DNA of 61,459 nt, counting the filler, from Hausera hauseri (lineage: Eukaryota), in assembly GCA_046269625.1 (NCBI GenBank). It is 10 parts of 10 records of this genome, joined end to end, with 100 filler letters (N's around TTAATTAATTAA, not from the genome) between each part and the next. Parts side by side here need not be neighbours in the genome. Positions count along the whole stretch, not along the records: positions 54,311 to 61,459 come from JBJURY010035668.1; 9 more parts are not named here. One strand, 5' to 3'. Made by a program: the position numbers and the translations under genes. The notes beneath the pieces are model-generated. The model was not told where the DNA came from, ran no database searches, and saw only the letters and a list, made by a program, of their open reading frames with translations. Below are positions 23,389 through 61,459 of the stretch, in pieces (position 1 is the stretch's first letter; each line of letters opens with the position of its first letter).

Positions 23389-23494
23389 TTTCTGTTCTTT
23401 TAGATGGATTTTATCATTCGAACCGGTTTTTTCCTTAATGGGATTGTTAATCTTAGAGCTTTTGCTCTGCCTATATCTTCCTCATTTTGTGCGA

Positions 23495-30727: not shown

Positions 30728-30813
30728 AAAATCATCATTATCGTTGTAAATGTGTTCGTTTGTAGAAAAATCGTGAATTTTATTTTGTACGACGACGAAC
30801 AAGTTACCATGAG

Positions 30814-31939: not shown

Positions 31940-31990
31940 GATCTCGATGATGATGATGATGGTGATGATGGTGATGACGCAGTTTGTTTA

Positions 31991-32490
31991 TTATCGACGT
32001 TGACGACGTCGATAATGTAACGTCAAATGTGTAGTTGATCCAAACAGAAATTTAATGGGTTCCCAAAATGCATGAAGCACATACACGGAAATACTGTGCA
32101 CAATATTCTGAGACAATGATAAGTACATAGGTCTGAACATAATAACGTGAACAGTTTCACCCGATGTTTTGTACGTGTCAGAATCCAGTTCGATATAAGC
32201 CAGCAGTTGTTTACGTTCTCCACCAACAATTACGGATTCGGTTAAGTCCGTTAAAATGTTGATTCGGTGAAATGCTCCGTAGAGTTGTGGTTTGTATTTG
32301 GCAACAATAGATCGTCTAACAATGTTTTGATAGAATTCGCGTTGTGAAAAACCCAGATTCCGAGCCAATAATTCATTAAAGGCAAAATATGTAACATTGT
32401 CATGTAGTATAATCGAAATATGACCATCTGCGTTTATTTCACATATCTTTACTGCTAATGTAGCCGTTTTCTTACGTACTCAATTCCAGT
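31991..32490 (-). pseudogene. Penton/minor capsid gene 1, C-terminal half
   Basis: LGF...NILTDLTESVIVGGERKQLL...FRPMYL...THLTLHYRR. Confidence 0.8.
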
Positions 32491-33412: not shown

Positions 33413-33668
33413 CTTTACCGTCGATGGTGTCGGTTTTCCTTTCAGTACAATAATTAGAACGAAACGTAAATGAAAGATTCGGTAAACTGGAACAGAAAGA
33501 TGAAAACCATGCACCCATATCGTCGAATCATTATATACTCACCGTCATTGTTTATACTATCATGTTGTNNNNNNNNNNNNNNNNNNNNNNNNNNNNNNNN
33601 NNNNNNNNNNNNTTAATTAATTAANNNNNNNNNNNNNNNNNNNNNNNNNNNNNNNNNNNNNNNNNNNN

Positions 33669-34929: not shown

Positions 34930-37345
34930 TCATGGCGGTAGATAGTCTGTGCTAAGTAAATGTTTGAAAATTGCCTTGTTAAAGGAGCAGCCTGTTGGTA
35001 AACTTTTGATGGAGTGTGGGAGGCTGTTCCATAGATGTGCACCAGAGTACGAAAGGCTCTTTTTGTAATGTTCAATCCTGGGTTTGGTTAGTATGAGCTG
35101 ATGCAATCTGCGACCATCTCTTCGGCTGGTGTTAAACAGTGGTACCAAATAACAGACGGAGTGGTTAGATAGAATTGTGTGTGTAAATTTGGCCTTGTAG
35201 AGAAAGCGTTTTCTAAGTGGTAATATTTTAGAAACCACTTTTTTCCTGGTGTCATGTTTAAGGTGCTTGTCAGCAATAAGGTTGACTGCTCGTTTGTGTA
35301 AAGAACACATCCGTTTGGTGGTAGATGCAGAGCAACCGTCCCAAACTGTTGAACAATAGTCTAGACGTGATTGGATATGTGAGGTGAAAAAAAAGCTGTC
35401 TTGTATCGTCATCAAGGAAGCGTTTCATTTTTGCCAGTTGGTATGTTTTCTTAGATGTGTTTTTTTTTTTTTTGTTAATTGTTGAACATGTGAGTGCCAT
35501 GTTAAATGTTGATCTATCGTCAATCCTAAAACTGTGTGTTCTGTGACGTGTTCCATTGATGTATTCTCAGTGTGGAGATGAAGCATTTGTTTTGGCATGC
35601 TCTGGAGTTTTTTGTCTTGTTGTAGTAAGCATGGATTTTGTTTTCGAACTATTTAGAAGCATGCGATTTGTTTTGCTCCACTTGATTATATTATGTACAT
35701 TCACTTGAAATGTACTTTCTAGTGAGTCACTATCCATTTCACTTGTGTACATGGTGCAGTCGTCAGCAAAGAGGTCACATGTTGTGTTTGTGCAGTGAAG
35801 TGGCAGATCATTGACATATAATGAAAAAAGCAGAGGCCCAAGGATAGAGCCTTGAGGCACGCCAAATTTTATGGTTGTTCTCGGAGATATCAAATAATTA
35901 TAACAAACTTGCTGGTGTCTGATTGAAAGAAAAGATTTGAACATATCTAATGGTTTATGACCCAGGCTGAATGTTTTTAATTTTTGCATAAGGATGACGT
36001 GGTCAACCATATCAAAGGCGTTCTTGGAAATCAATAAACACGGCACCGCACACCTTATAGTCAATAATACTAGACAGCCAGTTGTCTACTATTCTGGTCA
36101 GGGCTGTGTGACATGAATGTTTTGGCAAGAAACCTGATTGATTTTCAATCAGAAGACCGTTGGATGTTAGGTGTTGGAGTGTAATGTTGTATATGTGTTT
36201 TTCTAGTGGTTTAAAAAGAGATGATAGAAGACATTTTGGTCTATAATTGTTAGGATCGTTTAATGAGCCTGATTTATGTAACGGGTAGACTTTGCCAATT
36301 TTAAATGCAGTGGATAAGTAGTTTTTGGCTATGCATTGATTGTGAATATATGTTAGAGTATCACTGATTATCGGTGCACCATGGTGCAAGATTCTGTTGC
36401 TAATACCATCCAGACCTGAGCAGTTGTTGTTCTTTAGCGCCAGAAGGTATTTATAAACTTGATGGACTGTTAGGAAGGGAATGTTCTCTAGCGTTGGCGT
36501 GTTACATGTTTTATTGAAGCAAGTTTTTTTTTGACCGTTATCATAAGTGACATAGGGTTGATCGAAGATTATATATTTCATTAGTAAAGTGGTTACTAAA
36601 ATGTTGTGCCGTGAGAGTATTTTTAGTTGAGGTGTCTGCTGATTTTCTTTTGTGTGATAGAGTGTTTATTGCTGTCCAAATGTTTTTGTTGTCTGATGTG
36701 TCATGGATCATGTTAAAATGTTTAAAGCTTCTGAAGCGTACTGTGATATGCTCTTGTTTGGGTTATTTAAGTCCTCATTTTGTCCACGTGCAGCATGTAG
36801 GATAGTGACTGTACATTCTGTGATGTGTGCTGGATATGTTGTGTAAATGTGATCGATTAGTGTGGAAGATGTTTCTGTAACCCTGGTTGGCTGATTGACT
36901 ATTTGTGTTAGGTTGTATGAAAGAATGATGTTATTCTATATGTTGTTTTGTTTGTAAAGGTCTATATTGATGTGCCCTAGGAGAATAATTTCTTTTGACG
37001 AGTCCCAGACTTTGTTCAGCTTCAGTGAGAAGTTGTCAAACCAAATGGCTGGGCATTTTCTGTAGAGATAACAAATTAGAATCGAACTTATGTTGGGAGT
37101 TTTATTTCTAGCCAAATGCACTCATCATCAATAGGTTCCAGGTCGAAGCGACGAGTTGCCTATATGGATGTCGAGACGTAGATGGATATACCAGCCTCTA
37201 GTTTTCTGCAAGGATCTCTACGGATTATATTGAAACCATTGATACTAATATCCTTGTCTGTAATGTTATCGTTTAATCGAGACTGCGAGAAGCCGAATGT
37301 TTGAAAGTCAAGAATCAAGACATTTGTTATTTCCGAGAGCTTACC
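34930..37345 (-). mobile_element. CR1/L2-type LINE ORF2 (APE endonuclease + RT), degraded
   Basis: NYRPKCLLS, NQSGF, AFDMVDH, GVPQGSILGPLLFSLYVNDL, LFADD, SRLDYCSTVW; upstream IILLGHINID and SETR-like endonuclease motifs. Confidence 0.9.
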
Positions 37346-38080
37346 TCCTAATAATCAGTGCTGGGATCAGCTTGCTCAATATGTTTACCTTAGATTGAGA
37401 CCCACAGTTTAGAAGTCTCTGTCTTGGTTACAGCTAACTGTTAAAATTATATCTTGTGAATAATATTAACAATTTTATCTTGCCAACATTAATGAACATT
37501 CTGTTGACTGTGCACCACGGTTGTGGTACATTTAAATGGCGCTGTAGAAGAGACTTACAGAGTAAATGTCTGTGCCAGCTACAGTCAGAGTTATATCATC
37601 AGCAAACATAAGATTTTCATCACGCGGGAGTGTTAACAGAATGCCATTAACACAAAAATAGAGCACCTGTTACTGAGCCATGTGGGACGCTTATTGATAA
37701 AGGATGGGGTTGTAATAAGATGTTAATACGAAGAAAAACGCTGTGTTCGGTTTTCAAGAAAGGACTGAACCACTGAGATAGCGTCAAGATACAATTTTAG
37801 TTTATGTAAACGCATTCTGTGGTCTATTCGTTCAAATGCCTTGCATAGATCTATCAACAGAACACCATTAATTTTATTACAGTTTATGTTCGAGTGACCT
37901 GTGTCAGTGAGTTTGGTTAGTAGAGACTGGTAAGAGTGGTTACGTCTAAAACCTGATTGATTCTCATGTAAGAGATTAAATATCATTGATAGAAGTCTGC
38001 ATATGGTTATAAAGAGTCGCTCGAGAGGCTTGGATATTGCAGAAGAAAGTGAAATCCGTCTATACTCTTCTGCAAGTTCA

Positions 38081-38340
38081 GGAGCCGCGGTGGCATAGTG
38101 GTTAGTGAGCTCCTCTGCCGATCGTGTGGTCGTGGGTTCAGTCCCAATTGTGGGCACTGAATTATTTTCGACCAAAACTGTCAGTGGCACACCCAGCCTC
38201 ATAAATGGGTACCGGAGAAATCTCTGAGAAAGTAAAGGCTGACACATAAAGCAATCATGTACCCGTGTCAAGGAAAAATAGGAGACTAAATCTACATTTG
38301 CCTGTACGCCTTATGTAGGCGTGTAATGGACTTTACCCTG
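38081..38340 (+). mobile_element. tRNA-derived SINE
   Basis: A box TGGCATAGTGG, B box GGTTCAGTCCC, CACCCAGCC..AAATGGGTACC core; target-site duplication CTGCAAGTTC at 38070 and 38341. Confidence 0.8.
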
Positions 38341-41809: not shown

Positions 41810-42029
41810 NNNNNNNNNNNNNNNNNNNNNNNNNNNNNNNNNNNNNNNNNNNNTTAATTAATTAANNNNNNNNNNNNNNNNNNNNNNNNNNNNNNNNNNN
41901 NNNNNNNNNCTGATGTCTTCGAAAGCTTCTGGTATGTGACCCTTAAGAACCACAAGTTAGATCCAGGCAATTTCTTTATAGCTCCGGGAATGAGTTGGGC
42001 AGCTATGCTGCGCTATACCGCCATAAGGG

Positions 42030-43990
42030 TCATTCCCGGAGCTATAAAGAAATGGCCTGGATCTAACTTGTGGTTCTTAAGGGTCACATACCAGAAGCTT
42101 TCGAAGACATCAGTAAGCAACCGCACATCTGTGATGAACTAGATATCTCTGTATTCCCCTATTGTCCTGCACTCAAAGGTCTGCCATACCCTTTGGGCGT
42201 GATCATAATCAGCATCGCTAATATGACTCTATGACAACTGACTACAGACGTCCTCCTTGGCTGGTAATACATCTTCATATAGTGCTTTCCATGACGTTAT
42301 ATAGTCATAGGGGAACACTCCTTTCCTCTTGACTAGGTCAAAGTTAGTTGGAAAGAACCACTTCGTCTCCTTGAGTTCTTCTGCAGGGAGGTTCTTCACT
42401 AAACTGTCCAGTAACGAGCTCATTAAGCGGAAGCTCTCTATAACTCGAAGTCTAATGCGGCCCACATGCATCATGAAGGTGATGTACTTCTCCTCACTAT
42501 TTGGAATCACGTCAATGTTCCCCTCAATATTACCCAATTCTCGAACAATGAAGTGGGAATCGTATACATTAAGACTGTGGAATACAACGGGAACATATGT
42601 ACATGTCTTGCAGCGTACGTTGCAATTGGTGCACGTTGCAGTTCGGTATATGTCTGTAAAATGGCAGTGATCTCTAACTTTGTGATTGTCCCAATTGAAT
42701 GGCATTCTGCATAAGTAGCATGTTGATGCTTTGTGCCATTCACATTTTTCTTGCTGTGACATCACCATGTAGCCCTTATACTGCTGCAACAAGTCTTCAA
42801 GTTTGTGAGCATACTGTTCAAGACTCTGCATAAAATGTGCTGCTGCATTTACACCCCTGTATAGGTAGGGTTCTTTGTCCAGTCCATTGGCATATATGCA
42901 GTATGATGATAACTTATGGTACCGTTATGCTGTAGTACTGCTTTGCTGTGGATTGGGGCTGCAATTATGAACTGGACTGAAGATGGCTTCAAAGTCACAA
43001 TATATGACAATCGGCACTTTCTGCATCTTCTCGAACTCCTTGAATTCCAGGTAATCCTCGTTGGAGAATTCTACTCGGATGCAATAGTTTGTATTGCTGT
43101 AGGTCTTGTGCTCCTCCAGCTTTTCTGCGGCTGTGTCTCTATTAAAATGGGTAAAGCATCTTTTGCATATTTCCATCCCAGATTTATGCTTAGATATCTG
43201 GGATCCTACGAGGCGCTCAAAATTTTTGATCCAGATGAAATGCCTTGTTTCTCCATCATCTAGCAGGAGCAGATCCCCATGATCCTCCAATTCCTCCTTG
43301 CACACATGTAAGGGATAAAATTTGTCCTCCTCCAATCTGAAGATATTGATGGAGATGTTGTTCACGCTTTCAAATTTCACGACTTCATCTATGCTCGGAG
43401 GGAAAGAAGTACAGTTGAAGTCGTATGTGTGCTGCACTTTGTCACATATATACAAACTAGGGAAGCATTATGTTGATCCTGGACTAGTTTTGACAAAATA
43501 GAACACATGAAGCACATGCTGTCCTCATTATGGACATTGATGCATGCCTTTTTCTTTACTATCCATTCAGGAAGCGGTATGTAGGAGTTGTCTCTCATCG
43601 GAGAATAATTGTGCACATGCACAAGTAACCCATTTATTGTTGCTAAAGTCCAACCACTCTTCTTGTTCTGGCTTTCTTCGGGTTCGCGGATAATCCTGAC
43701 ATAGTCCTCTGTAATGAAATCCTTAATGTTAGAGGATTTCAATAGTGGCCTGTTTTTTGTCTTGTAGGCTGTACTAGACAGCTCGCCTTTGACATTAGTG
43801 AAGGTGGCTTCTAATTTGAATTTCACCTTAAGGGTCTTTAGCTCCAACAAGTTGTCCTGGAGAATTCCTGCTGCCTCCTCCTTTAAAGATTCCAGGAATT
43901 CATGGAACGATGTCTGCCCCACTGCTGCTATGAAGTATCACCGCACTTTGCTCTTCAGTGCAGCTACATAAACTGGCCGCTCTCTTTGGC
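42030..43990 (-). pseudogene. polB: Protein-primed family B DNA polymerase (Maverick/adintovirus type), N-terminal half
   Basis: KSGWTL; YIPLPEWIVKKKACINVHNEDSMCF; VIYCDFE (Exo I); KVRDHCH endonuclease-VII-like insert; FHSLNVYDSHFI (Exo II); RKGVFPYDY. Confidence 0.9.
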
Positions 43991-44162
43991 TTTTTGATGG
44001 AGCATCTGCTGCTACTTCTGATATGCATTTTAATCCTGCATCGGGCCTTGCTTCTAAAGAATGCTGTACAACTGGCTGTGCTGTCAAAGCAGGCTGTGCT
44101 GCCAAAGCAGGCTATGCTGCCAAAGCAGCATGCTGCTCATAAAATATGACCTTCTTTGACTT

Positions 44163-44393
44163 CTATGTGAAGTCAGTCAAATGATGTTTGTGATCTTCAT
44201 AAAACTGTATGTATTCTCCATCATATATAGCCTCACATCCTGGGCAGATATAATAGAATATCCTATTGAATTTGTGTCCATAATAGCTCCTCATGGTATT
44301 GTGGCAATTCTGAGGGTTGTGTATTGCACATGAGCAATACACGTATGAACTACATCTTTGATTTTCATTTGGCACGAAAGTCGTTATTGGCAT
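44163..44393 (-). CDS. Small Cys/His-rich protein (76 aa)
   Basis: Intact ORF with IHNPQNCH...YYICPGCE...HKHH; paralog of the adjacent ORF. Confidence 0.6.
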   Translation of the reverse strand: MPITTFVPNENQRCSSYVYCSCAIHNPQNCHNTMRSYYGHKFNRIFYYICPGCEAIYDGEYIQFYEDHKHHLTDFT

Positions 44394-44408
44394 ATTTGCA
44401 CTGAATAT

Positions 44409-44630
44409 TTATTTTTTCGACTTGGTGAAGGAAATGAAGTGCTGTTTATGAACATTGTAAAAGTCTTTATAATTGGATTGGCACACTACCTCACATGTAA
44501 GGCATATATAATACTGAACCCTGTTGTATAGATGGCCAAAGTACTTCTTCATAATACTGTGACAATTTTCAGGCTCGTGGATTTGAGCCAAACATTCGCT
44601 GTAAAGTTTGAAATTGTAAAAATCAACCAA
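44409..44630 (-). CDS. Small Cys/His-rich protein (about 73 aa)
   Basis: IHEPENCH...YYICLTCE...HKQH. Confidence 0.6.
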   Translation of the reverse strand: MVDFYNFKLYSECLAQIHEPENCHSIMKKYFGHLYNRVQYYICLTCEVVCQSNYKDFYNVHKQHFISFTKSKK

Positions 44631-45789
44631 TTATTTTGAGGAGCACAATTAAAAAAACCACCATTCGTTGAAGTGATTTTGGAAATAATGAAATATATTG
44701 CCATATCACCATATACTCCCCGCTTATTGCTCAGTTTTAATGCACTTTTGTTTTAGTGCATCAATTAAATTAAATACAAGGCGGTGCCCAATTCAAATAG
44801 GTCTTCCTATATGGGGAATCGAATGACGTCTTTAGATTCTTCGAATAATGCATGATTAACCTAGTTTTCGAGTTCGAATAGCTATGTATTCGACTTGTAA
44901 GCTCGAATTCGAATATCGTATGTCATATTCCGATTCGACATATATGCTTTCCTATCCCACCCCGTTTATAGATTTGCCGATTTCCGCTTCACTGGGATTT
45001 ACATGCACATATTGCTTAATTCAAAATATTGATTTTATATCTATATATTACATTTTCATGGAATAATTTTTATGTATAAGGGGGTGTTCATATATAAGGA
45101 ATCGATTGCCACTGTTAGATTTTTCGAATAGTTCGATATTCGATATTCCAGCTCGAAAATTTTCGAATTTCGAATATCTGACTTGAGATTCGAGATAGCC
45201 ATATTCGATTTCCTATCTGTCCCCGCTAACTATATTACAGAATTTTGCTCCCTTAGGGCCTAAGAAACATATGTGGGTTCGCCCTCAGTTGCATTTTGGA
45301 TTTTTATTTTATAACGGAAAGGCCTATGCGGGTTCTCCCTCACTTGGGAATTATTCGAAAACCAATCAATATATTTAAATTCTAACTGCACATTGGCACA
45401 GTCCCTCATGTGTGCTACCGATTGTACCTGGTGCCGTGCCCTAATCATCAATATTGGGATTATCGGAAATACGATATTATTGATTTCGCACACTTGCACA
45501 TGCGCTGCACAACTTCACTGTACACCACTCCATGTGCACTGATGTGCACTATCGACTAGCACTTTGTCCCGATAGATTCGATCAATACTGCACTGTGCAG
45601 CAATCGATTTGTCAAATTTGCAAAAATGAGCTTAGCAACGGTGCCTAACGGTACCGTCGCCTAGCACACTACCGATCCATAGTGCTCCGCATGCACTATC
45701 GATTGGCACATGTGCAAATTGATTTATCGATTACCCGCCCCCCTTGCCCCCACGAGTGGTGAGGGACAACCCGCATTTTCCCCAACTAT

Positions 45790-46842
45790 CATGATATTAC
45801 TTCTGTTTTGTTCTTATACATCAGGCATTTGGAAGATAAAGGGTATACGCAATGTCAAATAACTCAAAGAATGAACATTTCCCAAAGTGTCGTTTCACGG
45901 ATATTGTCTGGTAAACTTTCATCAAAATTCAACTCGGGAAGAGTTAAGTGTACAATTACAGGGACCACAGGGTCATAATAAGATTTGTCAAGAATGCATT
46001 TATATCATAGAAGGAAATTAAATCAACGTTGCCAGAAGAATGTCATGTTTCATCTCGGACTATTCGCAGACGTCTGGTTGATGCAGGATTACACTCAAGG
46101 AAACAGGCTAAAAAGCCACTCTTAAATGAATTACAGAAGTATAAACGTTTGATCTTCTGTTGACAAGACAAAGATTGGTCGCCCGAACAGTGAGCTAAAG
46201 TCTGCTTCAGTGACGAATCCTGCTTTCAACTCATGACGTCCCTCACGAAATCTGTCTGTTGACCTAAAGGCCAACGTTATTCAACGCAATTTACTGTTCC
46301 AACCGTCAAACACCCTGACTCAATGATGATTTGGTCATGTTTTGAAGCTAAAGGGAGAGGATCAATCTGGTTTTTTCCTAAAAACGCCAAAATGTACTCA
46401 GGGAATTATATTGAATGTCTCACAGAAAAGCTTCCCAGTATGTAAATTTTCAACAAAATTCCGCACCATGCCATGTGTCAAAGCGGTCTATGGCATGACT
46501 TCGACCAAATAACATTTGTTTTCTGGACTGGCCGGGTTCCAGTCCAGATTTAAACCCCCTGGAGAATTTATGCATGGAATTCAAAAAAATTGTAGCCGCA
46601 CAAAATCCCAAAAGTGGAACAGATTTACGTAGAATTATTGTGGAGTCCTCGTACACAAAAATCACTCCAAACTATTGTAGAAAGCTTACTGATTCATTAC
46701 CAAGGTGCATCAAGTCAGTTATTAGTGCCAATGGTGGTAATATCAAGTATTAAAACAATTTCATTGACGTTTCTGTATTTCATTGTGTTAATTAAAAATA
46801 AATGCTTTTATGGAAATTATGCTAATTTTTTGACCACGACTG
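45790..46842 (+). mobile_element. Tc1/mariner transposon remnant
   Basis: KKPLL, FSDES, TVKHP, APCH, WPGSSPDLNPLENL; right end TTTTGACCACGACTG followed by TA. Confidence 0.85.
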
Positions 46843-46957
46843 TAATTCAATCTAAATTCCACCAAGTATGAAAGTAACACATTAGATTAGTTTATTTTTG
46901 AACAAAAACATTCAGTTTGCCAATATTTTGTCGATTCACAATCACATTTACAATCAC

Positions 46958-47030
46958 AGTGATTTAATTCAGACCGGTTCAAATTAACATTTGAGTGATT
47001 TAATTCAGACCGGTTCAAATTAACATTTGA
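46958..47030. repeat. 36-bp direct tandem duplication
   Basis: gtgatttaattcagaccggttcaaattaacatttga occurs twice. Confidence 0.85.
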
Positions 47031-48090
47031 TCAACAATAGACTGATTTAATCAACTTGATCGTGTCATTTTTCTTAATTTTGTGTCATTTTTCTTAATTT
47101 TATTTGAATTCTTTTAACATTTGGAATTTTGTTTTGACTTTCTTATCAAATTACGTATTCTGCAGAAGAACATATATATATAGTGATATTTCATTGAAAA
47201 AGATAGTGATCGTTCATAAATTTATTATGTACAAGTTCAATTCATGTGAGTATCTTTTATATTGTATCTTTTAGCTCTTTTAGTTATTTGTCTTTCATAA
47301 AAGTTATTTCACCTTTATTTAATATATCAGTATTTCTATCTGTGTATTTTTCTCATTGAACATTTAAGTAATCACCAAGTAAAGTATATTTGGTAGTAAG
47401 GAAAATAATAAATTGGGGACCCTGTACGTTCTTTTTACCGGACAGTAAAACCCGGTAACTTAAAATCACATAAATAAGGGGGAGTGACGTCGGTTTGCCC
47501 CTGACGAAGCTCACACCATAAGGTTAACTAAACTAAATAAAAGAAAAACAACCCACAGGTTGTTATAGACTGATTCAATAATAAAGTGATCTGGAGGAAG
47601 GAGAAACTCCTGATCAGAGTGAGTAAAACATAAGTTTACAATCATAAAATCAATCTTTTTATATCAATAAACTTATCAGTATTAACTTTTCAATGAGTAA
47701 CTACAAACGATCCAATTCTACTTCTGCGGACATACGAAGGACGGAGATTTTCTAATCCTCCCGAAGCTGGGCGACGATGTGGACGACGTGAATACGCATG
47801 CAGCCAACATTTCTTTTGAAAGAACAATGCTCATTTGGTATTGGCCTACATGCGCTGATACTAATTTCTATTCCAAGATCTGTCATTTTCCATTGCTTTA
47901 ATTTCGATGTTAAGCCGTTTTTTATATCACGTTCAATGACTGGGAAATTAAATTGGCCTTCATTACTATTTCTTATAAAATCTTCAATTATGTTTGATAT
48001 AATGATAATTACATTCCATATTTATAGTTTCATACCTGTATGTGTGCGTATATTGATTGCGTGCAATTTAATTGACTGTCATTTTATTGG

Positions 48091-48552
48091 ATGAAATTTA
48101 CTATAAATAAATTGTTGATATTCATTTTAAATGATATTCAAAGTTCATTTTCAAAATGGTATGATTACTTTTTGCACATCATTACTTTTTCATGGTCATT
48201 TAGCCTTGCAATTTCAATTATTGTACTAGTGACGTACGTTCGCCAGAAACATGCGAAGAAACAATGTCAAAATACTACTGTAGAAATTGACGGGTGTCAA
48301 TTTTATATATGCCCAACCTGTCAAGTGATTTCCGGCCTACAATTCAGTGCGTTTCGACAACAACATAAAATCATCTGTCATACTTCAGGAAACCGAAAAA
48401 ACTATCGTTCGAGAACACCAGATGATAAACATGGCCAAACAATTTGCATCAGACAAACAATTTCCAACAACATCATCCAAACAATTTCCAACAACACATC
48501 AACCAGCCAAATAGACAATCAAACAAGCCAAACGGCCAAACAACCAGACTAA
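48091..48552 (+). CDS. Protein with a Cys/His motif upstream of the second PolB
   Basis: HAKKQC...FYICPTCQ...FSAFRQQHK, preceded by a hydrophobic stretch; start uncertain. Confidence 0.45.
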   Translation: MKFTINKLLIFILNDIQSSFSKWYDYFLHIITFSWSFSLAISIIVLVTYVRQKHAKKQCQNTTVEIDGCQFYICPTCQVISGLQFSAFRQQHKIICHTSGNRKNYRSRTPDDKHGQTICIRQTISNNIIQTISNNTSTSQIDNQTSQTAKQPD

Positions 48553-48604
48553 ACAGTCCATTCCCATGAAAAACCAAAAACTACAAAATTAAACTGTAAA
48601 AAAT

Positions 48605-50112
48605 ATGAAACGTAATGTACATCCTGTCCTTGCTAATAATTACCTGAGTTCGTGTTTTGATGTTGCGCCCGATCTTATTTCTACTCGACCGCCTGAAGAG
48701 ATTCTGACTACTTTGCATATGTACATTTCTCAGTTTCCATCTTGTAAGGTTCAGTACGGTCTTGAAATTCTTTTTGAGAATGCTGAGAGTGACTTTAAGG
48801 AAGCTTATATTTCTCATCAAGCCGTGCCTTATGAGCAGTCTTATCCCAAATCTGTTTCTGATAATTTACAAGAGTAAATAGGGAATTTTGCTGAAATGGG
48901 TAATGGGTGGAAGGTAGTTAATATATTGAAATACTGTTTTCATACAGTCAAAACTAGCCCACTACCCTACTTGTCTGGTAAGTCCTATATTCCAACACCT
49001 GACACTTTAAAAAATGCAATGGCCGTTGTTAATGTACAGAATGAGGATAGTTTATGCTTCCTGTACTCTATTTTGGCTGTAACCAAATATTCTTCTTTTG
49101 ACAGTCATAGGTATCGAGTTAGCAATTACATTCCTTATTTAAACCAGCTGAAATATTCTTTGGATGACATGCCGAAAAAATGTTCAATATAGGTAAATTT
49201 GAGAGGCCGAATCCACAGTTGTCAATTAATGTATTTCTGTTTCACGACGAGGATGATGTGGATTTTGATGAGGACATAGTAAAAAATCCATTCGTTAGTA
49301 TTTTGTATCGCAGAAAAAATTCCAATGGTACTGTAGTCAACTTTCTGATTTTGGAGAATGATAATCACTTTCACTATGTTGCTATACCCAATCTGAATCG
49401 GCTGTTGAACGTACGGTCTAAAATTATAAGAATTCAATGTAAACATTGGTATGAAAAACGTTTACATGTGTTTAGGCTTGACACATCATATTTTGAGCAC
49501 TTACCCATAAGCAATTCTTCAGCCAAATGCACAACCTTGTACAAAATGTCGTAAAATAAGTTTTGTGAGTTTAAGGACTGGGCTAAACCTATAAGCCCAC
49601 CTTTCGTCGTATATGCTGACTTCAAATCGGTTCTGTGTCCTGACAATAAAGTCAAGCATATTCATTTGCCTGCTGCAGCCGTTCTCTTGTTAGTAACACC
49701 AACAGGTATTGAATATAGCCCATTTGTATGTGAAAATTCCATAGATGAGTTTCTGGCCTCTTTATAGGATATTGTTAAGAAAATTATTTTCCGCTGGGAT
49801 GAAAATACCAAAAAGCCAATGATCCTATTAACACCAGCTGAATGGTACGGTTTAAAAATGCCACATCATATTATCTTTGCCATGAAAATGGTTCACAATT
49901 TGTTAGGGATTACTGTCATGTTGCAAATAAATTCTTACGCACTGCATGCAACAAATGTAACTTAGCACGACAGATCAGATACAACTTACCAGTCATATTT
50001 CACAATTTGCGTGGATACGACTTGCATCATATTTTGAAACATGCATTAAGTAAATTCGGAAGTTGGAAATTAAGTATTATTCCGCAAACAACAGAGAAGT
50101 TCCTAACAATAA
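48605..50112 (+). pseudogene. polB: Second Maverick-type PolB, N-terminal part
   Basis: GNGWK; GKSYIPTP..LKNAMAVVNVQNEDSLCFLYSIL; FVVYADF; VRDYCH...ACNKCN; IFHNLRGYDLHHI. Confidence 0.88.
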
Positions 50113-50212: not shown

Positions 50213-50570
50213 TTTACCGGTTATTCGAGCTTATAAACAGTGTTGTCTATCTACGTTCATTGGGATTAATGGTGTCGTTGGTTTGATTATTAAAGTATCA
50301 CCATGCATATTACCACAATGAAATACGCTGCGGGATCTCCGTATCATGCATTCCGTTGCGTCCATTGCAATTAATTCACGCTGTTGACAGAGTACATATC
50401 TTTTTTCTGTTGTCTCGAGCTCGTGAAATCTCGTATCTTCACATGTTTCTAAATCCATCAGGGAATATTTCTGACCCACCTTGAATTTGTCGCAGTCGTA
50501 TATAGTGACGGAACCTATCTACTTTACTAGCATCATTATCGTCAACAAATTTATTAGCCAATTGGATTCG
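50213..50570 (-). pseudogene. env: N-terminus of a second class III env copy
   Basis: GQKYSLMDLETCED...DATECMIRRSRSVFHCGNMHG, closely similar to 26400-26750. Confidence 0.85.
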
Positions 50571-53500
50571 TTTCCTTTGTTCGGGAGATATTTTGTATCA
50601 TGTCCTCTATTTTATTAATCCCTTTTGCTTCCTCCTCCTTTTTGAATAATTTAGTCCATTTTATCTCTTAGCTGCCCTTATTGCAGCTTTTCTGGCTAAC
50701 CCAATTGTCTTGTCGAATTCATTTTCCGGAGAGGGTTAGTTCTTACTGCCAAATATATCAAGACTTTCCTTCATTCTTCCATTATATTGTCTGTGATAAT
50801 TCTATCAAATACTGTTTCATCAGGGATGGCGCTTTTAGATAATTTGAATCGTGAAATCTTCATTGTCCGGTCTAGATTATATATTAGTCTTTCCATCTCG
50901 GATAATAGGTCACCTTGGAGTCCAGTATAATTGACTATCCTAATTAAATCTATCATTAGTTCAATTAGTTCAATTAGTTCTTCGTTATCTGAACTCGGGG
51001 TTGATACCGATCGTTGTCTCAATTCCCTAATTAGGTCTGCATTGTAATCGATTTCTTTTATTTTTCTCGGTCTTCGGACCGGTCGCTTTAGTTTCATTGG
51101 TGGTAAGATTTCACTTAGAGGAACTAAGTTTTTATCGTATTGCGGTTTGTCACCATCAGTCTGTAAGTATTCAAAATACATTGCGGCATCCTGAATCCCC
51201 ATGATTCTTCCGGACGCAATGCTCTGTATGTGCCTTTCTCATGGCTTCATCTTTGGTTTGCTTACTGGCGATTATTGCTATTATTCAATTTTCCTCGAGG
51301 GGTATGATCCCTACACCTGTCAAGGATTCTAACTCGTCTAATATCCTGCCCCTGAAATAGAGTCGATAATTAACTCCTTTCCTACCGTCATTATCCATTA
51401 TCCGCTGTTTTATATCCCCAACGGTGGTATAAGTAGTGCATTCAAATTCCTCATTGTCCATTCCTTCGGATGATACTTTCACTTTTAATTTCCGCTTCTG
51501 GTTTATTTTTCAACAGTTTGGCATATTCTCTTATTAAGAGCTTGGGTACAGCGTTGTATGCGGTGTTTTCACTGGATAGCTTGGTCAAGGTTGGAAGCAA
51601 TCTCCTTAACCTATCTTCACTTATGTTTATTTTCAAAGCACTGCTCAGTTCCTTTTCAGCTAGTGTGGGATCAAGTAACATTTGCACTTCGAATTTCGTC
51701 TTGTGGGTACCAATACGTGACTGATAAATTTGTATTGGAGTTCTTTGGCTTTGCTCGTTTAAACCCTGAAGGTATTTATCCTACTCGGCCTCATTCTCTG
51801 CGTCAGATAATTCGTAGTTCATTAATGCCGCGTGTCCAACTTGGACTCTTTCGCGTAAGTCTCTTATCTGCGGTTGGAATGTTTTCATTACGGGTATCCT
51901 AAATCCGTCTCCGCTTCCGCAAGCTTGTAGTATTAATGTTATTAATCGGCACATTTCTTCTGGTTGTATTAGGGCTTTTTCCTGATAGCTAGTCACTTCT
52001 GCGATTCTGTCCCTTTGCCATCTTTGTATAAATTCCGTTTTGTCGTTCATTTCGGATTCCGTAAGGGAGTACTTGTTCTTGTGTACTTCTGTTTCTCTCA
52101 GTAGTTCGTTTAGTACGCGCTGTCTTTTTTCGGAGTGTAACCGGGTCTCTTTTACTAGACGTATTTAATTTATTAGCCGTCTGGCTACTACTTCGTCAAT
52201 TTCTGCCATTTCTGTTAATAGTAGGATTAATTTGTGCGTTTGATTTAATACCTCGGCATCCGGGTCTATTGCGTCCATTAGCCTGCCTATAAACTTGGCT
52301 TCGTCGCCCGTCAACTGAAGAAACTTCCTAATTTCCGTTAGTTAGGTGTAACAATGTAGGTCGAAACCTGGCGTCCATTCTACTGGATTCTGTAAATATT
52401 GTAGTGTTTGCGCCAGAGCAATCCGGTAATCGCTACATACTTCTAATGTTTCTATTTTCTGTGATGAGATTTTCTTCAGCGGTTTCTGCATTAGGTTCTG
52501 TATCCCTTCCCAACGGATGTTCGCTAAACTTCGCTGAAGATCACTTATCTTGTTTCTTTTTCTGTAGAATTCCTTTTCTTTTATCATACTATATATCTCT
52601 GTTAGTGTCGTTCGATCTTGGTCCCTACTCATAAATTCAAGTTCTCGGAATGATTCGAATTTAATTCGCAATCTCGCTTCGCTTTTCATCGTACCAATAT
52701 CTAGTAACATTTCTTCCAATTTGTGTCTCATTATAGACTCAACCACAGAGAATTCTCTCAGTCTTTCATTTATTACTCCTGCTATGGAAGGTAACAAGTC
52801 TACCCACTTTCTTATTTGTTTAGATATTGCTGGTTTAGAGCGGATTATTTCGTCTAATGTCCCAATAGCTTCTTTTAGTTCGTGATCTGGCCCTCGTACA
52901 AATTCTATGATCTGTTTCATGTAGTTGAATTCTTTATACTCGCCTAATTCGAGAAGACAAGCGCGTATTATTCTCTGTGCTTCTATTCTTTCAGAGTGAA
53001 CTACACCGCTCTTAAAGTTGTTGATTTTGGTTCGCATTTCATTTTCTTTTTCAATACGTATTTTTAAATCTGGGTATTTTTGAGGGCTATCCTTTATCAG
53101 GATGCACATTGCCATCAAATGGGAAATATCGATTGGGTATATGCCCAATATCATTAAGTCGGCATCAGTCAATTCATATACTGGCTTATTATTAAGATAA
53201 GAGATTATCGCATCTTCGATCTCATATATCAATCCTTCTAAATTACGTCTTACGCGTTTCAGTTTTGGGTTGTCTTTTAGTGCGTTTAATAGTCATTGCG
53301 CTTGATTAACCTGATCGAGAAACGGCTTATTTCTATTCCACCATATTTTCGTAAAATCGATCCCACTTTTTGTCCACAGTTCTAATTTATTTTGCAAACT
53401 TCTTATCAATTCTTGCGGCTTCTCTTGGAATTCATAAGTTGTGTCCTCCTTTTTCTGAGAACCAGGTTTAAGCTTTTTATATAGCTTCTCTATGAATTTT

Positions 53501-54210
53501 TGTTCTTTTCCGGAGATATACAACTGTTTGCTCATCTGCTGGAGTTTTTGTAGGTTCTCCTGTAGCCTTTCGGGATCACTCAGTGCGTTTCTTATTTCGG
53601 TTATTTCGTTTCCATTTTTCCAGGATTTTCTAATCTTTCCAAACTTGACCGGTTTTCCCCTTCTGGTTCCTCTTCGCTAAGCGGTATTTGACAGACTTCA
53701 TTAATTTCATCAATATTTGAGATATATGTTGTTTCAGGAACGTCTTGAGTTATAACAGAAGTATTCAACTCCGTTTCATCTCTTAAAGTGATGATGAAAT
53801 CATTTTCCTTTTCTAAATTCTTTTTAATAGGGGATCGTGAACGAGTTCTCGACCTCCGCCTAAGTGAAGGACTTTTACCTCTATTTTTGGTTATCTTGAG
53901 TATTAGTGGACCAATGAATTCGCTCTTAACCTCGTCTGTTGTTTTGTCCTTATCTTGAGACGTGACCTCGGTATCTGCGTCCAAGTCTACACTTGAAGAC
54001 GTAGTTGGATTGTCTTCTTCCTCCGCTTGACTTAGGTTTTTCTTTCTGGCCATGTTAGTATTTCCAGGCGCTATAGCCTTTTCGTACTTGGTTTTCGGTT
54101 CTCTTAATCCATGGTAAACTTCCATTTGCTGCAACTTTTCTTCGTATTCCTTCCTGGCCTTGATTACTTGTGGATTATTATACTCACTTATACTTCTTAC
54201 ATACCTTCGC
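50570..54210 (-). pseudogene. Long fragmented coding region upstream of env (same family as 22303-26946)
   Basis: Continuous run of minus-strand ORF pieces; 50570-50665 is homologous to 26750-26860 (WTKLF...KGIN..DMI). Confidence 0.65.
51285..51482 (-). CDS. Ubiquitin-like domain
   Basis: TTVGDIKQRIMDNDG...YRLYFRGRILDELESLTGVGI versus ubiquitin TIENVKAKIQDKEG...[21 protein letters not shown]. Confidence 0.7.
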   Translation of the reverse strand: MKVSSEGMDNEEFECTTYTTVGDIKQRIMDNDGRKGVNYRLYFRGRILDELESLTGVGIIPLEEN

Positions 54211-54964
54211 NNNNNNNNNNNNNNNNNNNNNNNNNNNNNNNNNNNNNNNNNNNNTTAATTAATTAANNNNNNNNNNNNNNNNNNNNNNNNNNNNNNNNNN
54301 NNNNNNNNNNAGCAAACCCTAATGGAGTAATTTACACCAGATGGACCAGCAGAATTACGTCCTATTTAGGACTGACACATGTTGACTTGTTACAGAACGA
54401 AGCAGGTTATTTAACAGATTATTTAATAGACCTACCAGCGGAGGAAATCCCAGTGACTAGAATGCCTTGCTTGCAATACCTCATAAAAATACATGAGCAA
54501 ATTACCGATATAAGCCAGCACTTAAAGAAAAGGAGGAATAAATTTATAGGTCTCGTCAGAGATAAGATACCTGGGCAGAAGTGGATAAAATATTAGTAAA
54601 CGAAGTCTACTGATTTCAAATTTCACACCAAAAGGAGAGTCAATTACAAATGAAAACTCGACCGAACCGGATAATCAACGAAGTATCGAAGCTGTTTTAA
54701 TAAACCATCAAAGCATGAAGCCAAAACTTAGCTAAGTAGTGTTATTTTTATGTATCTTAGCACTACGCATGACGAGCGTATTGGTATAATCAACAGCAAA
54801 ATCCACAAAAACGGTGAGACAATCAGCAATCGGTTACATTAGGCAGCCACCTCCGCAAAGAGCCAAATGGATCTAATATGGCCTTATAAATAAGAACTAA
54901 TAAATATATTCCACGAAACCATGAAAAAGCTATACTAATAACCATCAATATTTTCACGATTATA

Positions 54965-56351
54965 ATGGTCACAACTTTATGTAAGTATAAATTCCTATGT
55001 ATATTACCCATGTATATAACAAGTTCATTGGTACAAATAACGTCAACACCTCAATTCAAGTTATATCTAATCTCAACTATTTCTAATAAACAAGGATCAC
55101 ACACCATATTCCGAGATTATGCGAAACTACCAGAAAATACGAGATTCGAACTAAAAGATAACCAACGATTCATATTTAAGGTTTTCTCCATCCATTATAA
55201 CCCCGAGAAGAAATGCTTGATAATAACATATGTAAATAAAGCGACAGGACGAGAGAAAGAAGCTGTGATATTGTTTGAATTATATAGACCAATTTGTGTT
55301 GCACATTAAGAAATAAAAGGAAACAAATGCTGTCACCTCTCTCAAGGATACACCTATTCCTGAGTATTTCAAGTATCAGAACTCATAAATGGCTTAAGTT
55401 ACAACATTACCATGAGACAAACTATGCTTGTTACGATACCCGTGGAAATAACACACACTATGCCAAGAAAAATAAAATCCAAAATGGAAAATATAACAAA
55501 GGAAAGCAATAACAAATCAGTCGACATTCCATACCGCCCGATACCTGAATACGATAAGTCAATAAGTGCGGATGTAGAAAATTCTGTAGGACTCATGGGA
55601 ATAATATCTCTAATAAAAATACCCCTTATATTATAACCTGCACGACAAAATTAAAAAACGAAGAAGATTATACCTAAAATATCCCAGTCTAACGCCGTAA
55701 ATGAATTGTACACCAGGTGACGATCGTCAGATATTGCTGACCATCCAGTTACCATCTATATGCTCCTATACATTCTGGATAAGCGCCACACATTTTGACG
55801 CTTTTAATGCACCATTACGCGCATCTTATGATGATGTAAAATTTCCCTTACGCATTAAAACAATTCCATTCAACCATTTACATATTTCGTTTCACCTGAA
55901 TGACAACCATGTCATGTTTAATTTTCTTGCTTAAAATTATACGGTTTCATTCAACGATGCTACCGCCACCTGTATTCTACTCACGAACACATCCATAAAA
56001 TGCGATCAACTTAGACCCAGCTACCTCTAAAGGGTACAGATAATATGTCAACCTTATGAACCGTCTCTGAAACAAAAAAAAATAGCTTTATGTTACATAA
56101 CTACAACTGAAAAACAACATGCTTTCCGTACAAAATCTCAGAAAAAAACCAGAAAAAACGAAGTATTAACAAAAATTAGGTCACGAAATACAGTAGCAAA
56201 TCTAGACCACAAATCATTATTACTGGTAACTATTATACCCCCTCTCGCAGTCACAATTATTTTAACACCCGTACTAATTTTATGCATCAGAGAACGGCGG
56301 CTGTCTAAAAGCACTACTCTACGTGTAAATTACGATTTAGTAATGGATTGA
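54965..56351 (+). pseudogene. Type I membrane protein, paralog A
   Basis: Hydrophobic N-terminus, beta-rich ectodomain fragments, transmembrane LLLVTIIPPLAVTIILTPVLILCI followed by RERR. Confidence 0.55.
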
Positions 56352-56399
56352 CAAATAAACGTCTCAATATTGATGGCGCAAGGCCCAACGTAACAAGAG

Positions 56400-58067
56400 T
56401 TGGCTCAAAACCTCGTCGGACGATTTTACCCTTAAGCATATTAGTTTTCTGTATACCAAACTCTTTAACCCAACCAACACCAAGCGCTCAAAAAATAATG
56501 ACAAGCCTGTCCAGACAGGCATTACCGGATATATTCTAAGATTTTATCAAGTTTCTGAAAAGAAACCATAAAACAGAACCATGGGATATTCAAAAAACTG
56601 CGTCAGAAAACTTTTCATCCAATATAACCATAAGAGAAAGTGTATACTTATAAAATTTCCTCCAAACGAAACAAAACAGAAAATATCAGGAAGAATGGAG
56701 AACATTAACACTTTACATGCGATCTAAATAGTGTTTACTTCTACTTCCGCCTATAAAGAAAACTGTTGTAAAGTTACCAAAATATCTATTTATTCAGTAC
56801 AAATACATATATCAAGAAGGAAGGATCTACTTCTCAACGAAAACCGGCCAATTGGAATAATGATACCCACAGAGCAGAAGACAGTTACACTATACTTAAC
56901 AGACAATTCACAGGAACAAAAAGAGCAAACCAATATTGATAGATTATTCCTACAAGAAAGAATATTTATAGGCTAACCTAACTATAAGACGTAGTGCCTA
57001 CCTCCATCACCAAAAACAACATCCATTACTCCGGGGAGCACAACCAGTCAACCTGCATATTTGCACGTCTAGATCAGGAACACTCACTAATATTCACCAT
57101 GTTTCGTCTTGTAAATAGTATATGGAAATGCACAGTAAAAGGAATCGAAAGAAAGGCACCAACCATTCCATACACTTCTGCCATTATAGACAATCAACGA
57201 ATTAATGCAAAAATATTTCATGAAAACGAAATTTTAGTAGTAGCACCCCAAATCGGTAGAGCTCCCTACGTCCTATCCTGCACTGCGAAACGTTATAGGG
57301 AGAAAGTGTATATACTAGAAGTCACGAGTGCACGACCCCCGATATAATGTAAGAAGCATGACAACCGACAAATAATTCTAACAATACATTTACAATTTTC
57401 TTGTCCAAATACCTATTGGTTGAGTAGTTTTCGCTATTCAGTACATAAAAAAATTCTTTACCTGATAGCAAGATTACAACAGACCCCGGAACAAATCAAA
57501 ATAATTCCATTTAGACCACGGAATATTTATCTTCAAGTGGTATCTGACCGTGTAATGTTCAATTAACCTAATCCCGATTTTATTTTCGCATTAGAAAACG
57601 CCAATGACGCTTGCTTTCTAGTCACCAGCACCTACTCTGAATGTACTCAATTAATATCCGGTTAGTCTTATTTAGCCCACATCCAGCTATATTACTACAA
57701 CCCATTACGAAAACCCAGAACAGTTGCATTATTAGAAATCAATACACTCAAAAGAGGAGTAAATTCACTATTCCGATTCGCAACGCTCGAAGAGATAATG
57801 AAAAGAGGAAAATTCATTTCTAGAAAACCTATTATTTCACCTAAAGTTAATCAAACACCGACTGTCATATCACTGTCATTCGAGCCAATAAAGCAAGCCA
57901 AAGCCAATTATAATATATTCTTACTAATAATAATAGTAGGACCCACCGTCGTAACACTTGCAATAGCAGCAATCCTTGCTACATGCTTTCATAAGAATAA
58001 ACACGAGAAAACAGATATGACCCCTTCTAGAGTAACACCGATAACAAGCCATTCGAAATCCCTTTGA
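56400..58067 (+). pseudogene. Type I membrane protein, paralog B
   Basis: ILPLSILVFCIPNSLT signal-like segment; ectodomain homologous to paralog A; transmembrane IFLLIIIVGPTVVTLAIAAILATCF followed by HKNK. Confidence 0.55.
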
Positions 58068-58906
58068 CCAGTTTTGAATATGATTTCGAAATTTACAGCG
58101 ATGACAAATGGTTATCAATCATCAAGGAAGATGAGTACTACCCTTATGTAGAAAATAACGAAGAACAAATCCTATCAAAAACTAAACGTTACTTGTTAGG
58201 ATGCGCCGACGAACCAGCTAACTCAATGGACTATACAACAGTAAACAACGCCGGAACAATTTAATTAATGTTAGCAGTAGCATCAGGAAATGAAAAGAGA
58301 GCCAGAGACGCCATTACCCAACTAGATTATGAAGCAGCTGAAGCGCTGAAGTTCCAAGTTACGAACGGCGACACCATCGTTCATCTAGCCATTATGAGCG
58401 AGTGTCCTGATTTCTTTATACTCATGCTCATCCAGTCACAAGCACCCTTACATTTACCAAACGTGGATGCAGACATTCCCTTACTACTCGCTATACGCCA
58501 TGGTCGACATAACCTTGCAACACCAATATTCGATTATTCCTACGAAAACAAAGCGTTTCAAACCATTTTCCAATCACAATTACGCAGTATCTCATTGCAC
58601 CACGCCATATTTTTCAAACGGTTCCTCTTACTGGAAACCTTCCTGAATAAAAAATTCGCCAACAGAACATACCTATTCGACGTAAACTACGCGCATGGCA
58701 CTTATGAGAAGACTCTTCTCATAACTGTGCTTCTAACTCGTACATATGGGGCAGTATCCATCCTGATGCGCCAACCAGATATCCATCCAGAAACCGACAA
58801 TTATGGAAACCTGACGATCAATGACGTACTGATACGGAATCCCATGATTAGCTCCTTCGAACGTGAATGCCTACTAGCTATCATGCGTTGCGATATCGTA
58901 GTATAA
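58064..58906 (+). pseudogene. Ankyrin-repeat protein (one in-frame stop at 58262-58264)
   Basis: NNAGTI*LMLAVASGN; NGDTIVHLAI; DADIPLLLAIRHGRHNLA; SLHHAI. Confidence 0.8.
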
Positions 58907-60504
58907 ACATTCTTAGACACATTACCAACTTTATCCGTGTGTATATTTTAGTATGACTGTCTAGCACTGTGTATTATCATCATTGTATTCTTAATTACTG
59001 ACGTTCCTTATCTTCTACAATTACTGACACTATCTTATAACAATGTACATAACTCATGACCGATATAGTATTGTATGTTGTAGTTTTATTTAACTTATAT
59101 TTGATTAGTGAAAATAAATTTTTTCATCGTTTTTTGTATTAAAACTGAAAATGGAGCTTTATAATGATTCGCGGACTTTTTATGACGCATTGGGGTCCTA
59201 GCTGAGTGCAGATCAATTGGTTTATACTTTTTTCAATCAAACAGCTATCCCAAACAACGTAAATCTGAAAAACTCCAACTGTACCCCAGACAAATGTGTC
59301 TACAACAAGCAACAATTGACATCACCATTTCATTATCCCAATTAATCCTTACCGATAAACCAAGAAAATTCGACATTATAGACATTTACCTCGTAAACGG
59401 TAAATTAACTGTCAACATCAATTACAGTGATCCTATCTTCGACATAAATAAGGAACTGTCAAAAAACTGTAGTGTGATTATCACTATCCCTACAGTGGGA
59501 TGATTGTCGTGTATATTTTCTTTAACCAATTCACCGTGGAAGTAACCCAGCCAAAACTCAAATCTACCAATACATATACCCAAACCACTTTCATCAATAA
59601 ATGAATATATTTCAACACCAAAAGGACTAACTCTATCAGATTTAGAACCATTATTCGCCTTTGTATCCTATAATTACGTCACCATTTAACCCAATATGAC
59701 AAATATCCACCAAACCATCATCGACATTGTTATACAGATTATAAAGCGAAATTTTATTACAAATGTATCCAAGACATAAAGTCATCGACTGGAGAACACC
59801 CTTTACAGACATAACAGACAACCTTACCTTGTATAAAATAGATAACGAAGACTTCGTACCCCTTATACAAGATATACTGAAGCATAAATTCATTATAACA
59901 ACACAAATAGATGTACTTTTATGCTCATTTAAATTACTCGTTACTTACACCAATGGCTTCTTAGACCTTAGCCATCACCCTATCGCCTCCATTTTCTCGG
60001 CAGATGCACTAATAATAATTCGCCTAAGTGATCAATTATTACATATTAGTACCATTCCTATGTATACGTCCCGTTAGTACAAGACAATCTACTTAGACAA
60101 TTGTATAACTATATGACAAACTCATTTAATATTGAAGATATTGCTAATTTTATCGATCTTAATACCATTAAATTACATCTCAATTAATTCTACTTATTTT
60201 CAGATTCCTTCGAATTCATGGAATGCCGAGTAATTCTTGATGTAGTATACCGACTTACACCGTATCTACACATGCTATGTCTGTATTTCATGGATCAAAC
60301 CAGACCCCAAGCAAACCAAATGTCGTATTGTCAAATCTGTTAATCTGAAATTAAATATCTCATCATGCATAATGCTTATCCATTGATTCTGACAAATCTC
60401 TACTCGACGCCAAAAAATTCGAAACCGTCGAACCTACCAATCACACCACATATTACTACACTTGGGATGTGTCAGTCCCTTTCTTTGTTCCATATTTCCA
60501 GCTC

Positions 60505-60595
60505 CACACATGTTGTTTATGCCGTAAACCCAATAAAACAGCATACCAATTTAGTTGTTGTAACACCGAATGTTGCTCAAATTGTTACCAAATGG
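60505..60595 (+). pseudogene. RING-like Cys cluster
   Basis: TCCLCRKPNKTAYQFSCCNTECCSNCYQ. Confidence 0.45.
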
Positions 60596-61109
60596 AGTCC
60601 CACAACGACACTTAATTTAGAGTATATGCTATTTCTGTCTTCAATTTATATATTCCTACTTTCACCATCCTAGAACAGCCCTCCTTACTGTTACTAATAC
60701 GCCGATTACTCAATTACTTCCAACGAGATACTTTTGATTAGAACAAATCATCTGCCAAAATCGAATTCCCAATCCACCGCTTTAGCCCATCCATAATAGT
60801 TTGATCACCACCAATCGTATTCCAAATATTCTTGCCTCATATAAACATTACATCCCTGTTGCTTCAACCGTTATCAATACCACATCCTCGTTATCGCCCG
60901 AACGAACATTAGACTATTACAAACATTGCCAGTACCTAGACTCTTAATAACTCCAATACTAACTATATTTCATAGTCCTCTACTTCCCTCCTCATTGCAG
61001 CAAGATTGGTTCTCAGTTTTAAATTGATGCTCAATCAAACTCATCTCCCACCTAGCCCCACCAGACCTTTGGGAATGACGGCAAATCCTATTCTACGACA
61101 AACTTTCAA

Positions 61110-61350
61110 CGTATGAATACACTATTTGCCTCACTGAGCGTACAACTGTGATCCAATTTTAGTGCAACCATAACCTATGCGCAACTTGCTTCAACAAACT
61201 TCGATCTCAATTCCTACAATCAATCGACCAAAGTGATGCACTCGGAATGACCTTCCAAAACGGCATCTCATGTCCGTACTGTCGTCAACCATCAGTTTAT
61301 TACCAATCTTCCTACACCTACGACAACCGTACTCAACGTCTATGCCACTG
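61110..61350 (+). pseudogene. RING-HC finger domain
   Basis: EYTICL...F*CNHNLCATCF...ISCPYCRQ. Confidence 0.7.
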
Positions 61351-61431
61351 AGTCAGCCCTGTGAATGATGCGACATTAACAATCAAACCCCAAAACCTCT
61401 GTTTCATTGATGTCGGCACCCAGAGTGGTCC

Positions 61432-61459
61432 AGAGGATCGAATCCTTTTTCAAAGGGGG
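61432..61459 (+). promoter_or_regulatory. Putative polypurine tract of an LTR retrotransposon
   Basis: GAGGATCGAATCCTTTTTCAAAGGGGG at the very end of the contig resembles the Gypsy pre-3'-LTR sequence. Confidence 0.45.

Follow-up and report, generated by a model that had tools for sequence, protein, structure and literature searches.

A probable giant envelope-carrying Ty3/Gypsy retroelement in Hausera hauseri, seen from the 3′ end of a decayed copy

Which kind of element sets membrane-protein, ankyrin and RING finger sequences side by side on one strand and then stops at a purine run? The question is raised by positions 54311–61459 of a 61,459-nucleotide stretch of Hausera hauseri DNA (GCA_046269625.1), hereafter the window, which consists of short contigs strung together by 100-base linkers. 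These positions are one whole contig of 7,149 bp (JBJURY010035668.1; our handle G000:C35668, here C35668) flanked by N linkers. With a probability of roughly 0.85, we read it as the closing 3′ stretch of a decayed, envelope-bearing Ty3/Gypsy long terminal repeat (LTR) retroelement from a high-copy family whose overlapping copies indicate an internal region of about 34 kb, or 38–40 kb with its LTRs; in this reading, the membrane and ankyrin sequences likely close a frame of about 9,200 codons. An initial annotation of the window had proposed that the contig is the 3′ region of a large Gypsy-like element—related contigs bear this out, showing both a purine tract followed by TGT and linkage to an integrase.

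The terms copies and sisters are used here for distinct contigs within a fragmented assembly of 909,086 contigs. The base composition of 54311–61459 (A 0.357, C 0.224, G 0.140, T 0.279) agrees with the A/C skew first noted, and so does the coding strand: stop-free frames of at least 100 amino acids number eight on the + strand and none on the − strand of C35668. This copy contains many stops and frameshifts. On the copy number that the initial annotation wished to see measured, the family proves to be high-copy; each query returned 376–2,913 first-look candidates, which are candidate counts rather than copy numbers, and those scored (40 per search) were mostly 72–91% identical.

Both ends of an LTR retroelement

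C35668 ends in TTTTTCAAAGGGGG (61446–61459, + strand), a T-run with the first part of a polypurine tract, as had been reported for the exact point where the contig stops. A contig stopping at such a tract is weak evidence alone in an assembly of 909,086 contigs, where 34 sisters continue beyond this point. What follows in these sisters is more telling: an LTR beginning with TG had been expected beyond 61459, and 26 of the 34 pass from the purine tract into TGT, the LTR starting a few bases beyond the end of C35668. A further contig, C51108, agrees, running in one natural piece from a RING frame (256 codons, 70% identical to the last 744 bases of C35668) through the tract and 3,152 bp bounded by TG and CA to a primer-binding site; it comes from a more distant subfamily, possibly with an insertion. 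Among the loose ends listed for the contigs of one sequencing run, none falls at 61459.

After the tract, the first 350–400 bases are conserved among sisters and the sequence then diverges. We considered an LTR of 350–400 bp and rejected it; that length is the conserved LTR start only, and the LTRs of C51108 and C21974 are longer. From the 5′ LTR on C21974, which shares short blocks with 3′ LTR starts, a length of about 2.1 kb follows, so that estimates for the LTR span 2.1–3.2 kb. The primer-binding site is the exact complement of the 3′ end of the host tRNA-Met(CAT), as called by ARAGORN. It has 112 exact matches in the genome, a figure that takes in related subfamilies, against 0 for a control, and it follows YAACA plus a spacer (usually 7 bases) with at most two mismatches in 21 of 29 contigs checked. 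Two hallmarks of Ty3/Gypsy elements are present in these sequences: a polypurine tract immediately followed by an LTR with TG at its start (26 of 34 sisters; C51108), and a primer site complementary to the 3′ end of a host tRNA, behind an LTR ending in CA.

The interior was reached by a six-step walk through overlapping contigs, from C35668 to the primer site. The integrase anticipated upstream of 54311 lies at one end of C388811 (15,762 bp), which carries bases 1–832 of C35668 at its other end. Coordinates along the walk are given on a map that chains five contigs (C848747, C151311, C77771, C388811 and C35668), with C388811 taken without a private 1,738-bp insert. Pfam matches on the walk contigs include RVT_1, rve, Integrase_H2C2, aspartyl protease, RT_RNaseH (3e-31), Monjiviricetes_fusion (PF24664; 4e-21), BIR (1.3e-8), a weak Retrotrans_gag (7e-4) and further RINGs behind the primer site. 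The resulting order opens with the LTR end, the tRNA-Met primer site and the RING cluster, then BIR/RING, the gag-like region, env and protease; after these come reverse transcriptase (RT), RNase H, integrase and a second protease, then 11 hydrophobic segments, ankyrin and a stop, and finally a gene that we call gene 2, a RING gene, the polypurine tract and the LTR. The pol order protease–RT–RNase H–integrase is that of Ty3/Gypsy elements and comes with their YxDD and DDE motifs: YIDD stands in four of five mapped RT frames, and the integrase D, D and E motifs at map 14.5–14.8 kb. The Monjiviricetes-type fusion protein (env) and the first protease share one open frame; the second aspartic protease is in frame behind the integrase, and natural copies read from one into the other. 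We are all but certain that the family is an LTR element.

Several observations concern the 5′ part. A variable cluster of several RING frames stands directly behind the primer site and before BIR (L245:505-2700, L247, L256, L334:8900-10000), its first RING preceded by an acceptor-like T-rich AG. About 8 kb behind a primer site of the family, an uninterrupted 278-codon frame (L334:900-1733, − strand) resembles the AAA ATPase p97/VCP. Between gag and env, two segments (residues ~330–800 of the relative P0026; L228:680-1552) without a Pfam match look like further degenerate exonuclease domains, and a motif directly before env resembles BH2. A CX2CX4HX4C zinc knuckle was found in no mapped frame nor in P0026; an Arg/Asp-rich region follows gag instead.

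The long frame and the 3′ cargo

The initial annotation described C35668 as a cassette of separate, apparently intronless genes. Sister copies suggest another arrangement—a single frame of about 9,200 codons, probably running from gag through ankyrin, between an ATG at map 3,824 (4 copies listed) and a stop at window position 58904 (16 of 18 copies). Openness was assessed in 913 windows of 240 bases over map 3,900–31,300: 850 have at least one open copy, and the share of open copy-windows is 38%, compared with 4.4% for the opposite strand. P0026, a relative of 1,963 amino acids with 49–71% identity, runs without a break from the gag region through env. At four gaps inspected by eye the stops vary from copy to copy, whereas the true ends are closed in all of 10–18 copies. 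These open windows, the copy-variable stops and the uninterrupted P0026 make the tail of one polyprotein the best reading of the membrane and ankyrin parts.

Part of the evidence speaks against a single frame: 63 of the 913 windows have no open copy, and map 20.9–21.2 kb is sampled in only 2–3 copies. The gaps in openness fall at positions sampled in 2–10 copies, and a graph of open frames splits the giant frame at three thinly sampled junctions. The same element might instead carry several accessory genes behind its integrase, each with its own signal peptide and expressed from subgenomic RNAs. The signal-like segments would fit this arrangement equally well, as would the windows without an open copy and the one junction resting on 2–3 copies; a precedent exists in Burro (GYPSM1), giant gypsy-like LTR retrotransposons of dugesiid planarians, described with an open reading frame 1 (ORF1) of only 4,873–5,140 amino acids and accessory ORFs beside it (PMC6431247). 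We nevertheless consider separate genes unlikely: reading continues in natural copies across three kinds of boundary (integrase to second protease, transmembrane helix to the signal-like segment behind it, and last helix to ankyrin), and the stops at thin junctions differ by copy. Inside the single long frame that we prefer, a domain recurs two to three times, at map 18,156–18,600, at 22,678–23,125 and partly near 20,634 (L151, L124, L128); its copies are 65–70% identical in DNA, and Pfam gives no family match.

C35668 itself would hold the last ~1,530 codons of the gag-env-pol frame (54311–58906, + strand, like all features that follow), broken here by stops and frameshifts and tiled by overlapping open frames of the sisters. 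Signal-peptide-like and transmembrane-like hydrophobic segments lie at approximately 54730–55030; the hydropathy peaks are common to 5–6 copies, and the signal-peptide reading is tentative. Membrane segment 1 (55030–56300) comprises a beta-rich ectodomain and a transmembrane helix (~56225–56300), and membrane segment 2 (56430–57990) a signal-like segment, a beta-sandwich-like ectodomain and a transmembrane helix (~57915–57990). The two were initially described as paralogous membrane proteins. Their paralogy holds (24–36% identity, best E 6e-15), but probably not their separateness: in sisters the frame goes on past a transmembrane helix to the following signal-like segment, and in one copy, L005, past the last helix to the ankyrin repeats, so that these parts are unlikely to be genes of their own. 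The ectodomain matched no Pfam family, its best ESM Atlas score was 0.80, and 40 pattern matches in metagenome contigs gave 0 confirmed relatives; the model of segment 2 has a mean predicted local distance difference test (pLDDT) score of 52, with Foldseek E of at least 0.05 and a best Z of 5.0.

The ankyrin repeats (58265–58903), already recognized in the initial annotation, match Pfam Ank_2 with E 1e-4 in C35668 and 2.6e-11 in a sister, and likely form a cytoplasmic tail, because in sisters they are in frame behind the second transmembrane helix. A non-coding spacer (58907–59150) follows, with AATAAA at 59113 (14 of 18 copies) and then a T-rich tract—a possible poly(A) site or splice acceptor. 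Differences from C35668 by codon position are 0.171/0.098/0.272 in ankyrin and 0.079/0.071/0.322 in the last RING, and they are flat in the spacer (0.195/0.179/0.210), which shows no codon-position bias. The cargo was therefore likely under purifying selection, given the third-position excess in ankyrin and RING.

Gene 2 (59151–60187; ATG in 16 of 18 copies, stop in 21 of 21) is the region first listed as unknown. Its C-terminal half resembles RNase T/DEDDh exonucleases in the ESM Atlas (score 0.94, 192 of 256 features, 29 of 30 matches RNase_T). Pfam and Foldseek gave nothing significant for gene 2 and the PDB no sequence match; with a model pLDDT of 49, the best Foldseek E was 0.31, with 3'hExo first and SDN1 and ISG20L2 lower. 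The exonuclease-like domain is likely inactive, as its catalytic motifs look lost when judged against the canonical ones.

The RING gene (60204–61459) consists of a RING, a Cys-rich segment, a Pro-rich linker and a second RING; it runs through the polypurine tract, and in sisters the frame ends a few codons inside the LTR. RING fingers had been noticed before, and C3HC4-type matches were obtained in the last frame of C35668 and in sisters. The gene continues in the gene 2 frame after the gene 2 stop, and its first RING cysteine precedes any ATG. A candidate 54-base in-frame intron (60150–60203) covers that stop; its GT stands in 16 of 20 copies and its AG, in the same phase, in 18 of 20, and it may join the last two genes. 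Readthrough of the stop is the alternative. The intron is only suggestive, because two of eight conserved nearby GTs share that phase. Among the joints listed for contigs of one sequencing run, none skips it. The idea of intronless genes is thus doubtful for gene 2 and the RING gene, where conserved GT and AG surround the stop.

Element size and the other contigs of the window

On the composite map, the distance from primer site to tract is 34.0 kb, and the total with LTRs 38–40 kb. A second path through four other contigs gives nearly the same distance from the integrase to C35668 (13.0 vs 13.1 kb), and in one copy map 9,232 is fused in frame to 26,970, an independent tie between the pre-env region and the C35668 stretch. 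Collinear spans on single contigs include 14 kb (C388811 without its insert) and 7.5 kb (C77771), and most map positions are covered by several contigs. The total of more than 30 kb that marks Burro is exceeded on the composite map (34.0 kb internal), not on one contig. We judge a size above 35 kb very probable.

Several results pull in the other direction. No contig spans the element, and the overlaps between the five map contigs are only 360–1,600 bp at 75–81% identity; 5′ and 3′ LTRs match only in short blocks (74–86% over 35–90 bp), and no single contig examined carries both. The stretch from primer site to BIR is spanned by one contig only, the 5′ RING cluster has only 36 candidates, and relatives of the membrane domain number 0 among 1.84 billion representatives. 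Because five contigs were chained by diverged overlaps, none spanning, subfamilies of different lengths could be mixed in the map. The 34-kb map might then be a composite of related subfamilies, the real elements being Burro-sized and sharing modules by recombination—the overlap identities of only 75–88%, LTR ends that differ widely among copies, and the existence of deleted, duplicated and inverted copies would all suit this. It is improbable, slightly more so than separate genes, in view of the single-contig collinearity, the agreement of two independent paths and the coverage of most positions by several contigs. Rearrangements are seen in natural copies (L062, L085, L089, L078, L139, L333): one deletion removes 17.7 kb in frame at a short shared motif and another 4.3 kb, 3.2 kb is duplicated, one stretch is inverted, RING sequence recurs after an LTR start, and two primer sites lie 3,424 bp from each other.

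Large DNA viruses typically carry ankyrin, BIR and RING genes, and the window holds contigs at 1–4527, 27047–33568 and 41910–50112 with capsid-, integrase- and DNA polymerase-like frames that we take to be Polinton/Maverick-like. Even so, an origin of the cargo from an endogenous large DNA virus or the host, with an unrelated purine run, is so improbable as to be ruled out by the physical linkage to integrase (C388811) and RT, the tract, TG-starting LTR and primer site (C51108), the hundreds of decayed copies, and the lack of any DNA-virus core gene in those frames of the walk that were scanned.

The window also contains a second Gypsy family with env before pol (22303–26946 and 50213–54210, − strand), whose possible linkage to C35668 the initial annotation proposed to check. 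Such a link is not supported; the two families are separate, their env sequences being only 24–29% and their RT 51% identical. Upstream of env in the second family, a ubiquitin-like domain (E 6e-5) is found at 51285–51509, as described for Burro. The stretches at 11519–11983 and 34930–38310 presumably carry an SH3-SH2 kinase-like fragment and LINE-type RT remnants.

Proposed life cycle and known systems

The observed anatomy, gene order, priming signals and copy family suggest a life cycle. An RNA of 36–37 kb would be reverse-transcribed from tRNA-Met and the polypurine tract, and then integrated. Such priming and integration, like cleavage by the proteases, are expected from the general biology of retroelements. 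Two aspartic proteases, together with host signal peptidase acting at the hydrophobic cassettes, would release the enzymes and a set of membrane-anchored products from the polyprotein; the final product would be a type I membrane protein whose tail is ankyrin. For the flanking BIR and RING genes, expression would use spliced RNAs or RNAs of their own; we infer that their products may act as apoptosis inhibitors and ubiquitin ligases, keeping the host cell permissive. As predictions from sequence, this processing and these host-modulation roles are favored by a narrow margin.

The kind of element, the position of env and the BIR/ankyrin cargo are already published. What may be new is scale: we consider it rather more probable than not that this is the longest LTR retroelement described—a 38–40 kb envelope Gypsy with a 36–37 kb RNA, a polyprotein of ~9,200 residues with two proteases and a signal-peptidase-cut membrane chain ending in ankyrin, and inhibitor-of-apoptosis (IAP)-like, RING and exonuclease-like genes at its ends. 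Among the publications listed in the literature survey (titles and abstract starts) no LTR element larger than Burro appeared; the sizes and layouts of Burro-2, -3 and -4 lie outside the comparison and bear on this claim. If the reading is true, a retrovirus-like agent carries the host-control kit of a large DNA virus, the known internal size of LTR retroelements rises from ~25 to ~34 kb, and the longest polyprotein nearly doubles. RNAs of 36–37 kb fall in the range where RNA viruses are described as relying on a proofreading exonuclease (PMC6211748); hundreds of copies are therefore a natural test of the template length that reverse transcription and packaging can sustain. The third-position excess among copies implies that the cargo was likely selected while the element was active, and the "evolutionary tinkerer" idea for Burro-like elements becomes testable domain by domain.

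Three known systems offer a comparison. The planarian secretory cell nidovirus (PSCNV) has a 41.1-kb RNA with a single ORF of 13,556 amino acids and ankyrin cargo (PMC6211748); as a positive-strand RNA virus with RNA-dependent RNA polymerase and proofreading ExoN, it is an analogy only, and no homology is claimed. The GAG-ENV-POL Ty3/gypsy errantiviruses of Nematoda, Bryozoa and Platyhelminthes (Chary and Hayashi, PMC13524379) likewise place env before pol; they are described there as three-ORF elements, and the main text of that source uses neither "Burro" nor "ankyrin".

Burro itself is the closest parallel. It is described with an internal region of up to 25 kb, a total above 30 kb, ORF1 of 4,873–5,140 amino acids, env in frame between gag and pol, BIR and ankyrin, and decaying fragments in one dugesiid (PMC6431247); other sources repeat the total above 30 kb and report Burro expression on loss of SMEDWI-2 (PMC11410931, PMC13238120, PMC8532177). 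The family studied here differs in its internal region of ~34 kb and in a main frame of ~9,200 codons that continues ~5,400 codons past the integrase, where a second aspartic protease and then 11 hydrophobic segments follow. Additionally, Burro gag carries two or three CCHC zinc knuckles, whereas none was found here. The BCL2-like, ubiquitin-like (before env), dUTPase-like (protease–RT) and MATH/TRAF domains described for Burro (PMC6431247) gave no Pfam or PDB match in our family; those of Burro came from HHpred. No Burro sequence was among the matches in sequence searches (best RT 55%, best integrase 38%). We call the family Burro-like, not Burro, because it lacks the CCHC knuckle, is longer, and is likened by description rather than sequence. 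The likeness is nonetheless broad: both have env in frame between gag and protease, matching mononegavirus-type fusion proteins (uninterrupted in P0026), the order protease–RT–RNase H–integrase, a cargo of BIR, RING and ankyrin, a coiled coil near gag, a giant polyprotein and a very high copy number.

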